IMG/VR virus record: IMGVR_UViG_3300037549_000080
Coordinates: 1 to 59,762 of that record
Reading direction: 5' to 3' (one strand)
From: a virus
Lineage: Duplodnaviria > Caudoviricetes
DNA: 59,762 bases
In this document: positions 13,594-31,520 of the stretch, in pieces
Layout of the letters: each line of letters begins with the position of its first letter
Position numbering within the stretch: the first letter of the stretch is position 1
Made by a program: the position numbers and the translations under genes
The notes under the pieces: model-generated
Database searches by the model: none
What the model was told of the DNA's origin: nothing
What the model saw: the letters and a program-made list of their open reading frames with translations, nothing else

Positions 13594-14049
13594 TCATTTC
13601 AATGTTTCATAAGCCGCACCCGCTCTGAAATAGCACTGGCCAGTCTCCGGCCAATAGCCGTCCGTGTTGGTGCTGCAAAAGGTGTAGTTCGTGCCGGTGC
13701 CGGTGTAGCAGGCTCGCCACAGCGACATTGGCGCGGTTAAATCAGGACAACGCTCAATGACCGTTACCAACGTCTGTCCAGCCGCATTGGTAGCTGGCGA
13801 TGTTGACGGTGTCCACGCGAGGTGAATAAATAGAGGCTTGGTCAACGGCGTTACCAACGGCAGGTTGTCCATGTTCGTCCCCGTCGCCGTCTGAATCATC
13901 GGGTTAATCCCAACCGTTTCGGGATGCGCGACGGCATTCGTAACGTTGAACATCGCCTTTGCCATTCCAGCATTGAATGCCGCACTGTTCGTCTGCGCCC
14001 ACAACGGCAGCGCACAGATCAGGATTGCGATGGTGACGTATAGAGTCAT
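13594..14049 (-). CDS. Secreted protein (signal peptide, TN-rich)
   Basis: MTLYVTIAILICALPLWA/QTN; C-terminal VIERCPDL...W...YFRA motif. Confidence 0.7.
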   Translation of the reverse strand: MTLYVTIAILICALPLWAQTNSAAFNAGMAKAMFNVTNAVAHPETVGINPMIQTATGTNMDNLPLVTPLTKPLFIHLAWTPSTSPATNAAGQTLVTVIERCPDLTAPMSLWRACYTGTGTNYTFCSTNTDGYWPETGQCYFRAGAAYETLK

Positions 14050-17045
14050 TGAATTGGCTGATAAGCCGCTGTTGGTTCTGTGACCGCCGTGATTTTAATA
14101 TATTCATGCGGTTGCAAAGTAACCGTCCCACCACTCAAACCAACCGGAATTGAACGTACTGATGTTCCGTTATCGGTTCCTTTGGTTACATCCGATATAG
14201 TTGTCCCTGCCCCGTAATAAAAGATGCACGGCGTAGTCCCATTTGTTGGAACACAGTTTGTCCAGTAGGCAGGGCTAGAGCCAAGCGTGACGGGATAAAT
14301 CGGAAACTGGTTTGTTATTGATGCGAACATTCCTGACGGTGGCGGAACGAATGGCAACCCATCAATGGTATTTGCTTCCTCTTGAACAATATACCAAGCC
14401 AGCCCTTCATCTGCGCCGTCAAAGTGCGTTCCAGCCGAACAAAGATTTGTGTTCAAGTCATCAACAATCCCTTTTGGACATACCCATTTCTGATTGCCCA
14501 CATATTGAGTGATGTACTGATTTGTTTTCATCGCGTCATCCACATATCCGCACCATCCAGCAGTTACGTCGCCCGGGATACTTTCACCAAGCCAAATTAG
14601 CTTATTCTGTGGATTGTTTCGTATTGGCCCAAACAGGTTTGCAAAATTTTGAAAGAAAGCATTTGTTCCTGTTTGCGACTCGGCTCTTGCGACGTCGGTC
14701 ACTTCCAATCCTGTTACCCATGACGGCAGACAGTTGAATCGGTTAAACGTAAAAATCCAACGCGCTTGGTCGGTAAGTGTGAACTGTGCTTTTGTGGCCG
14801 TGTAGCCCTGATTAGTCATTTGAGTGGTGTCCGACCCGGCTCTTGAAAAAACACCAATACAAGGAATTGACGGGTTTCTAAACGCCCATGCCTCCCAAAT
14901 TTCATTGGTCATATTGTTGTTCAGTACATAACCTAGCTGAAGCATTGATGCGCCGTCCCACGAGTATTCATAAGGGCAAGGCTCCATTGCCCGCATAAAA
15001 CGGGTTGCCACCGTCGCCAGTGGCGACACTGTGACCGCGCCACTTCCTGCAACTACATTCGGCGCACAATTGGTGTTGAAAACAACCAAGTTATCAATCG
15101 CCCCAGCAAAACCACCGGCACCAGCACCCCATCTGGCAAACTCTGGAGTCACACCAAGGGCAATTTGACTGAATGAAATACCAGCCAACGATGCCGGAGC
15201 TTGATAGGTCAGAGCTGACCAGTTTGCATTATTCGACACCGTAAATGAGCAAGGCTCGCCTTTGTACCAAAGCTGGAATTTGTTTGTGCCATCAAAACTT
15301 AAAACCAATTGCTTTTGAAAAACGCTGAACTGTTGCGCCTGGTATGGACCAGCATTAGATGGATACCTGATTGTATTGGAGGCAGTCGAAGAATCATTAT
15401 AGTTGAACACCTGACCATTTGTTGCGATGAGCAAAGAATCATAAGTAGGCGCACGTGTTAGAATCGAAACCCAATTTGTCCCATCGGGAGTCCTCAACTC
15501 AAAAAATGGAAGTGCGTATTGCTCCGTCAGACCATTTACAGTGCCACCGTTAAATTCCTGTGGAGTCCTAACTGTTACCCCAATCGTCCACGGCCCGCTT
15601 AATGGCTGACGCAGCGTTAAAATGTTCGTGTAGGTCGTGTAGGGGCCACCGCGCAGAGTGTTGTAAAATCCAGAGATAGCTTGATTAAATCCCGTCCACG
15701 GCTGTTGATAAACAGAATACTGGTTCGTTCCATAGATACCGCCCTGCGAACTGTAAAGCGGCCAAGCATCAACTAGATTATTACGAAACCCATTGGCAGT
15801 TAAATCAGCAAACGCACCGCGCAGATGGTCTTTTTCTCGCTGTTGAAGATTTCCAACGGCAGAAATGTAATTTTCAAGCGTGGCGTCCGTCGTCACCACG
15901 CCGCTGGCGGTGAGGACGGCGGGTGGGATTGTGTTCGTAAGGTTGGCTGCGTTCAGGTTTGAGCCGTTGGTGAGCGGATTAGCCGTGAATGCGCCGTTGG
16001 ACAGAGCGTTCGTCATCACCTTCACAATATTGGTCACGTTGTTAAGCGATGCGCTGATATTTCCATCAGGTGCATTGGAGGCGAGCAAGGCTATGGCAAC
16101 AGGTCCGACTATATTGGATCCCTGCACGTTGGTAATTCCGAGCGCATTTCCAGAAAAATACGCAGCGCCAAGTGGTGTTATCACCGGAGACTGCCAAAGA
16201 AACCCGCTTAAAGAATTTCCCAACTCAAAAGCTGGCGCAAGAAATTGCCAGAATCCGTATTGAGTAAATGTTCCGCTGCTATTGTTTGTCGGTGCCACGC
16301 TCAAGATGTAGCTTTGCGCCGCCGCCGCCGCGCCGTTGGTGTCGAAAGCCGCCGCATTCGTAAGAACAGCATTCCCATTCACCCGTGCCTGTCCGTTGGT
16401 GAGCTCAAACAGCGTCATGTTTGTATTGATACCGACGTTGAACGTGTTCGATTCCCATTGCCAGCGATTCCCGAATTGATCAACGCGCAAAACGTGCTGG
16501 TTCGCGCCCACCAGCGAATGCGCCGTGGTCGTCGCGTTGGTGGTCAGCAATCCGCCCGTTGAATCAATCGAGTAGGTGACGCCGTTGGAAGTGATCGGGA
16601 AGCCGGTGCCGCCGGTATTGATGCCGGCCAGCAGTGCGTAAATCTGAGGGATGTTGAAGTAGTTTGACCAGTTGTTGGGCGGGTTAAGAACAGCCCAATT
16701 GACCAGGCTGCCCAGATGATTGCTGCCGGAGGTGTCCGGCCACACCTGCACTGGCCACGCGCTAAAAGTCGAGTCTGAGAGCGAAAAGCGGTAAAGACCG
16801 AAGCACACATTCGTGAAGGCAAAATTCCCGTTTGTGTCCGTCATCGTCCTGATCGGGTCATTGCTGATAAACTGCGCGGTGACCACGTTGTAACGGTTCC
16901 TGGGCTGCACCAGCGTCAATGTAATCGTCAGGTTGGTGCGGCCCACCTGACCAAAGCTGGACACGTTGTCATACAGTATGTTGGTCTGGGCCGGGGCGGT
17001 CAGCGCCAGCAGGATGGTCGGAAGCAGCCACAGTAACTTTCTCAT
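14046..17045 (-). CDS. Large tail-fibre/receptor-binding-like protein with a Sec signal peptide
   Basis: MRKLLWLLPTILLALTAPA/QTN; beta-rich, Thr/Asn-rich; end of tail module. Confidence 0.65.
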   Translation of the reverse strand: MRKLLWLLPTILLALTAPAQTNILYDNVSSFGQVGRTNLTITLTLVQPRNRYNVVTAQFISNDPIRTMTDTNGNFAFTNVCFGLYRFSLSDSTFSAWPVQVWPDTSGSNHLGSLVNWAVLNPPNNWSNYFNIPQIYALLAGINTGGTGFPITSNGVTYSIDSTGGLLTTNATTTAHSLVGANQHVLRVDQFGNRWQWESNTFNVGINTNMTLFELTNGQARVNGNAVLTNAAAFDTNGAAAAAQSYILSVAPTNNSSGTFTQYGFWQFLAPAFELGNSLSGFLWQSPVITPLGAAYFSGNALGITNVQGSNIVGPVAIALLASNAPDGNISASLNNVTNIVKVMTNALSNGAFTANPLTNGSNLNAANLTNTIPPAVLTASGVVTTDATLENYISAVGNLQQREKDHLRGAFADLTANGFRNNLVDAWPLYSSQGGIYGTNQYSVYQQPWTGFNQAISGFYNTLRGGPYTTYTNILTLRQPLSGPWTIGVTVRTPQEFNGGTVNGLTEQYALPFFELRTPDGTNWVSILTRAPTYDSLLIATNGQVFNYNDSSTASNTIRYPSNAGPYQAQQFSVFQKQLVLSFDGTNKFQLWYKGEPCSFTVSNNANWSALTYQAPASLAGISFSQIALGVTPEFARWGAGAGGFAGAIDNLVVFNTNCAPNVVAGSGAVTVSPLATVATRFMRAMEPCPYEYSWDGASMLQLGYVLNNNMTNEIWEAWAFRNPSIPCIGVFSRAGSDTTQMTNQGYTATKAQFTLTDQARWIFTFNRFNCLPSWVTGLEVTDVARAESQTGTNAFFQNFANLFGPIRNNPQNKLIWLGESIPGDVTAGWCGYVDDAMKTNQYITQYVGNQKWVCPKGIVDDLNTNLCSAGTHFDGADEGLAWYIVQEEANTIDGLPFVPPPSGMFASITNQFPIYPVTLGSSPAYWTNCVPTNGTTPCIFYYGAGTTISDVTKGTDNGTSVRSIPVGLSGGTVTLQPHEYIKITAVTEPTAAYQPIQ

Positions 17046-17054
17046 GATGATTTT

Positions 17055-30734: not shown

Positions 30735-30806
30735 AAAATTGAAAGCCGCCGGCCAAGTGAGAGGTTCAAATGACCGGCGGCATGTTGTTATTGAGGTTGG
30801 GGCAGC

Positions 30807-31520
30807 TTATTGCACCGACAACACGGAGTAGTTGGTCAAGCTCGCCGTGCCCGCCCCGTTCTGGATGCTTTCCAGATACAGGTTCAAGCCATTCGCCAGC
30901 GGCGGCGTGCTGAACTTGCTGAATACCACGTTGGTCGTGACCAGCGCAGTACCGTTCAACGCCATCGTCACCGTGGCATAAGTCTGCCGCGGACTAGCCG
31001 AACCGTTCGCGCCTGTGGTCGGGTTGTTGGTGATGTACAACGGCTGCACCGAACTGGACAGCACAAACACCACGTTGGTGGTCGAGGCGGCGGTGGCGGA
31101 CGCGATGAACTGAACGATTACGTCACCGTCCTGCGTGCCGCCGGCATTGAGGAACAACACATTCGTCTCAATCGTGTTGCCCGCGATGCCGGCCGTGTAC
31201 AGCCCGTTGGTTGGCTGGCTGGTCGAGTTGGTCGTGCCGCTGGTGCTGATGACAGCATAAGACGGGTTGCCAACGATGCCGTTCACGCCAATGACCGTGG
31301 CCGCCGAGGCAGCCATACCCATCAGCATCACAAAAGCCAGCAGCAGCGCGGCGAATTTCGCCACAGCTTTAGCCGTCTTTTCGTAAACGTGTTTCCGGGT
31401 GTCATCGTTCTGCACGCGCAGCACGTTTTCATCCTTGGCCGCAGCTTCAGCGGCATCCTTGTCGTTTTCATGCTCCACGGTGCTGACCTTGGAGCCATAG
31501 AGGAAGTGGTATTTGCTCAT
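30807..31520 (-). CDS. Capsid-adjacent protein with an internal signal peptide and TN-rich beta domain
   Basis: About 50 charged residues, then KFAALLLAFVMLMGMAASA/AT. Confidence 0.65.
   Translation of the reverse strand: MSKYHFLYGSKVSTVEHENDKDAAEAAAKDENVLRVQNDDTRKHVYEKTAKAVAKFAALLLAFVMLMGMAASAATVIGVNGIVGNPSYAVISTSGTTNSTSQPTNGLYTAGIAGNTIETNVLFLNAGGTQDGDVIVQFIASATAASTTNVVFVLSSSVQPLYITNNPTTGANGSASPRQTYATVTMALNGTALVTTNVVFSKFSTPPLANGLNLYLESIQNGAGTASLTNYSVLSVQ

Follow-up and report, generated by a model that had tools for sequence, protein, structure and literature searches.

Why would a tailed phage equip proteins of its late head and tail module with signals for export? To our knowledge, the particles of tailed phages are built wholly within the cytoplasm, so that export signals on a fiber-type protein are unexpected. 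The question is raised by the genome of an uncultured phage, IMGVR_UViG_3300037549_000080, a record of 59,762 bp that bears direct terminal repeats, is rated complete and was analyzed over its full length (the window); nearly all genes of this 59.8-kb genome lie on the minus strand. An earlier reading made from the DNA alone (here, the sequence-only reading) pointed to four proteins of this module that carry signal-peptide-type segments and are loaded with the dipeptide Thr-Asn (TN), and proposed that they are exported, modified at TN by a host periplasmic system, and added to particles at or after lysis. We give an even chance to the reading that this phage group exports a collar-anchored fiber together with small beta-rich proteins and that TN is selected in exactly this exported set.

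Late-module proteins with predicted export leaders

Signal peptides were judged by direct reading and with a rule-based filter of our own, which together confirmed four minus-strand open reading frames (ORFs) whose products, of 999, 151, 154 or 146, and 237 aa, have signal-peptide-type N termini or, in the last case, an internal segment of this type (Table 1). The leader of the 999-aa protein reads MRKLLWLLPTILLALTAPA/QTN (the slash marks the predicted cleavage site), that of the 151-aa protein MTLYVTIAILICALPLWA/QTN, with an n-region that has no basic residue, and that of the protein encoded at 26492-26932 MKKNLKKFLKVSLLTFGIVTAFVLSADA/QFS, with a signal peptide ending ADA/Q. This last gene is listed with a TTG start at 26956 (154 aa), and its signal peptide begins at the ATG at 26932 (146 aa). 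The hydrophobic helix of the 237-aa protein is internal, spanning residues 51 to 70 in a structure model and ending ASA/ATV, and its flanks have a positive-inside distribution of charge that fits an N-in/C-out topology. The full set of features expected for Sec and signal peptidase I, namely a basic n-region, an unbroken h-region and small residues at -3 and -1, is present in three of the four proteins. Predicted cleavage exposes Gln in three of the four and also in a 187-aa barrel-type protein of the same genome (signal peptide end LTA/Q), with Ala at +1 in the 237-aa family.

The leaders are conserved as a type. An exhaustive search by profile, started from the 999-aa protein, returned 97 relatives (E ≤ 0.001), and a hydrophobic N-terminal 10-mer is present in 88 of them; a small residue and then Gln follow in 83 of those 88, and in 64 of the 88 leader-bearing members the Gln is followed within 0 to 3 residues by Thr-Asn or Ser-Asn. 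Some of the 9 members that have no hydrophobic N terminus are fragments or align with the C-terminal part alone. The n-h-c layout with small -3 and -1 residues is kept across relatives while the leader sequence itself varies, and among 26 sequences N22 of the 999-aa protein never varies and Q20 reaches at least 90% conservation. Homologues of the 151-aa and 237-aa proteins keep the leader as well: two homologues of the former (82% and 78% identity) retain a hydrophobic stretch and A/QTN, and all those of the latter have A-A-T after the hydrophobic segment. Nowhere in the genome did the type IX secretion sorting domain PF18962 match at E ≤ 0.01. These conserved n-h-c leaders argue well for the export that the sequence-only reading had supposed, and it is probable that the four proteins leave the cytoplasm through Sec, with signal peptidase I presumably processing them.

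A directional Thr-Asn excess in the signal-bearing set

We compared TN counts with within-protein shuffles (2,000 for the 999-aa protein and 1,000 for the mature part of the 237-aa protein). The earlier hand counts of TN and NT proved exact throughout. The 999-aa protein contains 29 TN and 9 NT against 10.5 TN expected, and none of the 2,000 shuffles reaches 29. The small proteins show the same bias, with 6 TN and 1 NT in the 151-aa protein (1.6 TN expected, p = 0.0005), 7 TN and 2 NT in the 154-aa ORF at 26492-26932 (2.0 expected, p = 0.0015), and 7 TN and 1 NT in the 237-aa protein (2.6 expected in its mature part, p = 0.008). The neighboring 1,211-aa tail protein, which has no signal peptide and 139 Thr (11.5%), shows no TN excess, with 7 TN and 2 NT against 8.3 TN expected (p = 0.75), and none of the other 70 greedy ORFs falls below p = 0.05, the nearest being a UvrD-like helicase (4 TN against 1.5, p = 0.054).

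When all 400 dipeptides were pooled over the four mature proteins, TN was the sole strong outlier (49 against 16.8 expected, z = 7.9; the next-best dipeptide has z = 3.2). NT, TT and NN are at or under expectation, which rules out local patches rich in Thr and Asn, and neither gapped pairs nor flanking positions reveal a wider context shared around TN. The Thr codons that precede Asn in the 999-aa gene are mixed (ACC, ACA, ACG and ACT), so the bias lies in the protein and not in the DNA. Composition alone does not explain the excess, as judged by the shuffles, although all four proteins are rich in both Thr and Asn; they are also poor in charge, charged residues making up 1.7 to 9.8% of them and about 20% of the capsid and portal proteins. 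Sorting the ORFs of this genome with the rule filter gave 45 TN against 16.9 expected in seven signal-bearing ORFs and 34 against 40.8 in 54 others; the seven include two plus-strand ORFs that are unlikely to be genes, and in this set the 237-aa gene is displaced by an ORF on the opposite strand.

The bias extends to relatives. Pooled over the 97-member family of the 999-aa protein, TN occurs 1,558 times against 531.5 expected (NT, 401), with TN over expectation in 96 of the 97 members and at least twofold over it in 87. In most matches the aligned part is confined to residues 1 to about 170 of the query and begins at the N terminus of the matched protein, and the TN excess continues beyond this conserved domain (927 against 343.6 expected in the 59 members longer than 300 residues); one relative, P0006, has 37% identity to residues 325 to 998. 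A complete related phage (G001; 55,536 bp, GC content 0.48) has syntenic head and tail genes, a capsid gene product 76% identical to that of the window, and three signal-bearing, TN-rich proteins of 184, about 670 and 1,126 aa, with 6, 30 and 32 TN against 2.4, 8.3 and 10.6 expected. The gene for the first lies directly after the capsid gene and that for the last ends the tail module. In G001 (48776-49585, L005), a 269-aa protein encoded between two TN-rich fiber genes has a start that, by reading, resembles a metallophosphoesterase motif. In another related viral contig, the collar-fiber ORF (L015, 9629-12472) runs upstream without a stop into a stretch that reads as cold-shock-domain-like and that may be a separate upstream gene sharing its reading frame.

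Across ten related viral records, pooled without the window and the duplicate L008, 25 signal-bearing ORFs have 184 TN against 64.4 expected (2.86-fold; NT, 64) and 167 other ORFs have 244 against 174.6 (1.40-fold), so that the comparison of signal-bearing with signal-less ORFs came out as the sequence-only reading anticipated. All five of the TN-rich "other" ORFs that were inspected carry a hydrophobic leader that the filter missed on account of an over-long start or an N-terminal extension. The excess is present in relatives with GC contents from 0.47 to 0.63. A tblastn search of 50,697 phage records with the 999-aa protein gave no match, scans of viral contigs with the 999-aa protein and with P0006 gave no relative, and neither did pattern-limited scans of species-representative genomes with the capsid and collar alignments.

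TN sites are also better kept than Gly, Pro or Tyr. In alignments of the 237-aa family (14 rows) and of the N-terminal, collar-type domain of the 999-aa family (26 rows), Asn within TN is kept at 87% in both, against 36% and 28% for other Asn, and Thr within TN at 78% and 69%, against 61% and 39% for other Thr; Gly is kept at 59% and 50%. At individual sites the TN pair survives in as many as 13 of 13 and 22 of 25 homologues, and an Asn preceded by Ser or Thr in as many as 25 of 25.

Known fibers provide a further comparison. Eleven fiber-region proteins that assemble in the cytoplasm (T4 gp34 to gp38; lambda J, orf-401 and orf-314; and three proteins of Bacteroides phage B40-8) show no excess when pooled, with 37 TN against 40.9 expected. 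The first 100 residues of lambda Stf contain neither TN nor SN, and the collar fold therefore does not need TN. TN is positively maintained as a feature of the exported set and is not a by-product of composition, of DNA sequence or of the collar fold.

A modeled collar-type domain directly behind the predicted leader

The 999-aa gene closes the tail module and has a GC content of 0.50, against about 0.60 in core structural genes. An AlphaFold2 model of its product, built from an 87-row alignment, is confident only for residues 1 to about 125 (predicted local distance difference test score [pLDDT] about 87 to 97 over residues 21 to 120), in which a leader helix is followed by a beta-sandwich and a short helix. 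Compared with 48,161 solved chains, this N-terminal domain best matches the neck fiber of cyanophage A-1(L) (8keg_a; Z 11.4, rmsd 2.0, 92 aa), the N-terminal domain of Ur-lambda Stf (9e7m_Ta; Z 10.1, rmsd 2.6, 91 residues within chain residues 1 to 94), the Bxb1 tail tip (9d93_La; Z 9.8), the XM1 neck (7kjk_A3; Z 9.7) and the DEV collar (9cod_A; Z 8.8). These top five solved matches are all phage fiber or collar N-terminal domains, aligned from their residue 1 or 2 over 86 to 95 residues, and generic transthyretin-like folds reach Z 8.4 or less. The first match in BFVD is a "Lambda-like tail fibre protein N-terminal domain," followed by many tail fibers.

Passages of the Ur-lambda structure paper describe Stf residues 1 to 94 as forming a 12-copy collar at the junction of gpV and gpM (tube and tip), and this collar as connecting by a flexible linker to a trimeric shaft (PMC12617516). 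Since the collar fold match lies directly after the leader, the 999-aa protein, as modeled, is built like a collar-anchored side or neck fiber whose collar starts exactly at the predicted mature N terminus. The search for fiber folds suggested with the sequence-only reading thus returned a collar-type fold in the model. Its claim that the exported proteins are virion subunits gains support in part: the collar fold (Z 8.8 to 11.4) speaks for the 999-aa protein, and for the small proteins there is only a conserved gene position. We lean slightly toward the view that the 999-aa protein ends up on virions.

The three small proteins

The 151-aa gene overlaps the fiber gene, and its product may be exported alongside the fiber. 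None of the three small proteins had a match in Pfam or PHROG. The 146-aa protein has a mature part of 118 aa with 1.7% charged residues and had no homologue in the related loci. Proteins in the same slot before the tail tube in relatives showed no similarity to the 154-aa product in BLASTP at E ≤ 10 (best E 0.09 to 0.4), and we therefore make no claim of one protein occurring with and without a leader. Compared with G001, about 400 additional nucleotides separate the 154-aa gene from the tube gene. At 26091-26372 (minus strand) the tail-tube ORF has about 95 codons ahead of the part that it shares with G001, and this upstream stretch holds a threefold LWVSF repeat within a hydrophobic segment.

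In the slot after the capsid gene, a signal-bearing, TN-rich protein is present in G001, L007/8, L009, L010 and L011, and this position is kept in all relatives found. The model of the 237-aa protein (mean pLDDT 75.7) has a folded N-terminal part (residues 1 to 47, pLDDT above 90), the helix, and a beta-sandwich or jelly-roll over residues 87 to 237. Among the 13 homologues aligned with it, an N-terminal extension is present in 8 of the 14 rows, and the others start at the leader. Its generic fold neighbors include the exported PBSX protein XepA (Z 8.2), its neighbors in a protein atlas are weak and resemble carbohydrate-binding modules (CBM-like; TM 0.44 or less), and no decoration-protein fold is among the matches listed for the model, a listing that does not exclude one. 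A role in decorating the head would fit the position beside the putative capsid gene, and the fold gives generic jelly-roll matches only. A predicted complex of the putative capsid protein with residues 74 to 237 scored 0.00 (mark 0.32) and is evidence neither way.

A possible route to the particle and what weighs against it

We picture the following sequence of events. Late in infection, Sec would carry the four proteins into the periplasm of a diderm host, where the leader would be removed and the proteins would fold, with the 4 cysteines of the 151-aa protein and the 11 of the 999-aa protein possibly forming disulfides. The exported proteins would reach finished particles only when the envelope ruptures in lysis, and the collar domain would then dock the fiber on the outside of the tail or neck.

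Several points weigh against this picture. We infer the export and cleavage of all four proteins from sequence, and we found no precedent in the literature for the attachment of exported fibers after lysis or for exported tail fibers at all. The 999-aa protein had no match in Pfam (E ≤ 0.01, including the lambda tail-fiber N-terminal family), in PHROG or among PDB sequences (E ≤ 1), and we therefore class it as working like a lambda side fiber and not as a member of that family. Of its 999 residues, 794 have pLDDT below 50, the whole body behind the N-terminal domain being modeled without confidence. The transthyretin-like fold is common, with many adhesins at Z 7 to 8, so that the collar margin of 2 to 3 Z units is good and not decisive. 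The three small proteins are linked to the particle only by gene position. In the slot before the tail tube, G001, L009 and L011 have proteins that lack a signal and contain one TN each. The jelly-roll of the 237-aa protein has generic matches (best Z 8.3; TM about 0.3 in BFVD), and the folded cytoplasmic domain ahead of the helix, present in 8 of 14 family rows, is more readily expected of a membrane protein than of a protein decorating the head.

Nor is TN perfectly tied to export. The predicted exported 187-aa barrel-type protein has no clear excess (2 TN against 1.0 expected), and one of the 11 cytoplasm-assembled controls, the lambda side-fiber fragment orf-401 (L018, 14651-15856), has 5 TN against 1.3 (p = 0.006, uncorrected, one of 11 tests). 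The TN pairs of orf-401 all lie outside its collar domain. Finally, the Bacteroidota O-glycosylation motif is at chance in the 999-aa family (140 against 142.4 expected), which weakens either a host guess of Bacteroidota or a link to that system.

Alternative explanations

The best-placed alternative, which falls somewhat short of an even chance, concerns TN itself: the pair could be a structural motif that caps the starts of beta-strands in uncharged, all-beta proteins that fold without ATP outside the cytoplasm. Where the two models are confident, TN pairs often lie at the beginning of a strand or immediately ahead of it (for example TNILYD, TNLTITL, TNVVFVL, TNVVFS, TNVLFL and TNYSVLSV), and the absence of a wider context around it, the lack of enrichment of known sequons, and the lack of a glycosyltransferase among the phage proteins scanned would all fit. 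Strand capping has more difficulty with the lambda collar, which adopts the same fold with its first 100 residues free of TN and SN, and with the beta-rich fibers of T4, lambda J and B40-8, which show no TN excess; it also leaves unexplained the TN-normal 1,211-aa neighbor, which is signal-less and equally rich in Thr.

We consider it rather unlikely, if still a real contender, that the proteins are exported and never join the particle. They would act at the envelope of the infected cell, the collar-like domain being a general beta-sandwich, and could mask or destroy receptors against superinfection, keep progeny off debris, or help lysis. Signal peptides normally mean action outside the cytoplasm. 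The 237-aa protein resembles a bitopic membrane protein and has XepA among its generic fold neighbors, and the phage also encodes a protein of outer-membrane-barrel type. A stretch of one relative (P0002) that by our own reading resembles a GDS-type esterase also counts for a role at the envelope. Exported proteins are known in late operons, lom being one example, and passages on Porphyromonas phages read their Q-rule proteins in this way (PMC10367356). Set against all this, the five best matches of the N-terminal domain are virion-anchoring fiber domains that start at residue 1 or 2, as here, and a conserved N-terminal domain with a variable body is fiber architecture. The lack of relatives in species-representative genomes, from pattern-limited scans, fits phage structural genes better than host-conversion genes.

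A much less probable alternative is that the proteins stay in the cytoplasm, their hydrophobic N termini serving as inner-face tethers or as assembly elements cut by a phage protease. Precedent of a kind exists in Porphyromonas phage capsid proteins, for which signal-peptide predictions are noted and cleavage by prohead proteases is suggested (PMC10367356), and in the window the 613-aa protein encoded behind the portal gene begins with a weakly signal-like segment that G001 does not share. The varied leaders that nevertheless preserve n-h-c layout, small -3 and -1 residues and Gln at +1 (83 of 88) bear the signature of signal peptidase I, which implies cleavage at the outer face, and the positive-inside pattern of the 237-aa helix fits N-in, C-out. 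That the TN excess is an artefact of composition or of DNA is negligibly probable, for although the proteins are rich in Thr and Asn and the GC content of the 999-aa gene is under that of its neighbors, this was tested and found no support: composition-keeping shuffles are exceeded, four Thr codons are in use, and the excess recurs in relatives with GC contents of 0.47 to 0.63.

Host and modification

If TN is maintained in exported proteins, its selector would most likely lie outside the cytoplasm, as a host-envelope factor that modifies or handles the proteins or as a folding rule for strand starts. That an envelope factor reads TN as a site of modification is a tentative suggestion, slightly less probable in our view than the structural motif. 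The motif D-S/T-A/L/V/I/M/T is described, in the passages of a review, as enriched in non-cytoplasmic proteins of Bacteroidota, where it is read in the periplasm for O-glycosylation (PMC12871550). Its counts in the 999-, 151-, 154- and 237-aa proteins are 4, 0, 0 and 0 against 2.4, 0.3, 0.0 and 0.3 expected. The N-X-S/T sequon is at chance in all four proteins, and the PglB sequon D/E-X-N-X-S/T occurs once in the 999-aa protein and in none of the other three. No glycosyltransferase was found among the phage proteins scanned with Pfam, which were part of the total. As to the proposed modification at TN, the pair is conserved in the manner of a functional site, and known sequons and the scanned proteins give glycosylation no support. 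A literature search, thin on subscription journals, gave no account of Thr-Asn as a motif of exported proteins, whether bacterial or phage-encoded. An FkbM-family methyltransferase domain (58299-59093, minus strand; E 2.6e-11) is the sole candidate seen for a small-molecule or glycan-type modifier.

Leaders without Shine-Dalgarno motifs fit Bacteroidota. A Shine-Dalgarno-like motif precedes only 7 of the 47 gene starts here and is absent from 40. A/C-rich leaders of the type aacaacgaacaactaaa before ATG are common to many genes, for example at 31521-31550 and 17046-17075. Gln after the cleavage site is described as the Bacteroidetes Q-rule, a hallmark of signal peptidase I substrates, in passages of an analysis that did not cover Verrucomicrobia or Planctomycetes (PVC phyla) (PMC5837995), and Q-rule proteins are reported in Porphyromonas phages (passages of PMC10367356). 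From the Gln rule and the leaders without Shine-Dalgarno sequences, our best guess for the host is a diderm, specifically a member of Bacteroidota; searching plasmids with the DnaB-like helicase yielded no taxon of use.

A bolder version of the preferred reading seems doubtful to us and is nevertheless worth stating. TN, with Ser-Asn tolerated, would be the recognition motif of an undescribed envelope system, and phages of this group would export the outward parts of the virion to gain a mark, a pyroglutamate and disulfides before these parts dock at lysis. With equal doubt, such parts may comprise collar-anchored fibers and perhaps head or tail decorations, in an "export, mature, then assemble" branch of morphogenesis.

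Genome context

The features discussed are collected in Table 1. The 566-aa gene named as capsid is the best-conserved structural gene of the phage. It had no family match (Pfam or PHROG) and no PDB sequence match, the best capsid profile reaching E = 0.13, and it is therefore named by position only. A 15-bp GC-rich hairpin at 31553-31586 (minus strand) follows this gene directly (dG -33.3 kcal/mol, z = -5.9); 0 of 200 shuffles are equally stable, and no T-run follows it. The 613-aa protein after the portal (33344-35185, minus strand) has its first 26 residues outside the alignment to its G001 homologue. Replication genes identified by Pfam encode a DnaB-like helicase, a UvrD-like helicase and a phage O-like protein.

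Table 1. Positions of the exported candidates and of reference genes in the window
Feature	Position	Strand	Remarks
187-aa outer-membrane beta-barrel-type protein	11869..12432	(-)	predicted exported; lysis region
151-aa predicted exported partner	13594..14049	(-)	predicted mature start QTN; 4 Cys; start overlaps fiber stop (ATGA)
999-aa fiber-type protein	14046..17045	(-)	predicted signal peptide, collar domain, TN-rich body with 11 Cys
Collar-type N-terminal domain of 999-aa protein, residues 20 to ~125	16671..16988	(-)	beta-sandwich plus helix; from model
Signal peptide of 999-aa protein, residues 1-19	16989..17045	(-)	predicted cleavage APA/Q; read directly
96-aa Cys-rich protein	17055-17345	(-)	between 1,211-aa tail protein and predicted exported fiber
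1,211-aa tail protein	17342..20977	(-)	no signal peptide; internal comparator
146-aa small beta-rich protein, predicted exported	26492..26932	(-)	between neck and tail-tube genes
MuF-type head protein	27997-30108		Pfam
237-aa bitopic or exported protein	30807..31520	(-)	directly after putative capsid gene
Internal signal/anchor segment of 237-aa protein, residues 51-73	31302..31370	(-)	ends ASA/A
Putative major capsid protein, 566 aa	31599..33299	(-)	name by position; 76% identity to G001 counterpart
Mu-type portal	35182-36936		Pfam
Large terminase	38164-39636		Pfam

The Cys-rich protein upstream of the fiber gene matches DUF6171 with 24.4 bits, under the Pfam cut-off, and phrog_13558 with E 1.4e-11. 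The structural neighbors of the 187-aa barrel-type protein in the protein atlas are clusters of small porin or outer membrane protein beta-barrels (TM 0.61 to 0.68), among them virus clusters labeled as cyanophage outer-membrane-protein-like, and a patatin-like phospholipase gene adjoins its gene. Promoter- and terminator-like sites between 13000 and 32000 are no commoner than in shuffles, and there is therefore no sign of separate moron cassettes. The alternative offered by the sequence-only reading, that the four are surface proteins of a lysogen, found no support: the genome has direct terminal repeats, no integrase family was found among the part of its ORFs scanned with Pfam, and pattern-limited scans, which are weak evidence, gave no relative in named genomes.

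Comparison with known systems

A collar directly behind a cleavable export signal would mean either that final assembly takes place outside the cytoplasm or at lysis, or that fiber-type proteins also serve in a second role on the surface of the host. Like Ur-lambda Stf and the fibers or collars of A-1(L), XM1, Bxb1 and DEV, the 999-aa protein is predicted to begin its mature form with a beta-sandwich and helix followed by a long body (Z 8.8 to 11.4). Ur-lambda Stf and the related collar fibers differ in that they lack a signal peptide and are put together within the cytoplasm.

Exported proteins acting at the envelope are also encoded in the late operons of other phages, as with T5 Llp and Cor-type lipoproteins. 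Lambda Lom and PBSX XepA are similar to the set described here as signal-bearing proteins encoded among tail or lysis genes; the lambda annotation lists lom as an outer membrane protein and has it between J and the stf fragment. All of these are, however, small barrel, lipoprotein or lysis-associated proteins that are not fiber-like, and no TN bias is known to have been described for them. The Q-rule proteins of Porphyromonas gingivalis phages come closer in their leaders, since passages of that work describe phage-encoded Sec and signal peptidase I leaders that expose Gln and make use of the general secretion of the host (PMC10367356). That set differs in comprising five genes of unknown function in temperate phages, with a proposed alteration of the host outer membrane, and the same passages report neither a fiber fold nor a TN bias (PMC10367356). 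The TN and Gln signatures together may mark the hosts of uncultured phages.

For TN itself, the nearest parallel is the O-glycosylation of Bacteroidota, in which, according to the passages of the review, a short motif is likewise enriched in non-cytoplasmic proteins only (PMC12871550). The two differ in the motif, and for TN no enzyme, mass shift or glycan is known. Should TN have a reader, this would point to a new envelope pathway common to phages and their hosts. TN is a directional signature of two residues, enriched in the predicted exported proteins only and better kept than Gly, and it was a footprint of this kind that led to the O-glycosylation motif of Bacteroidota.

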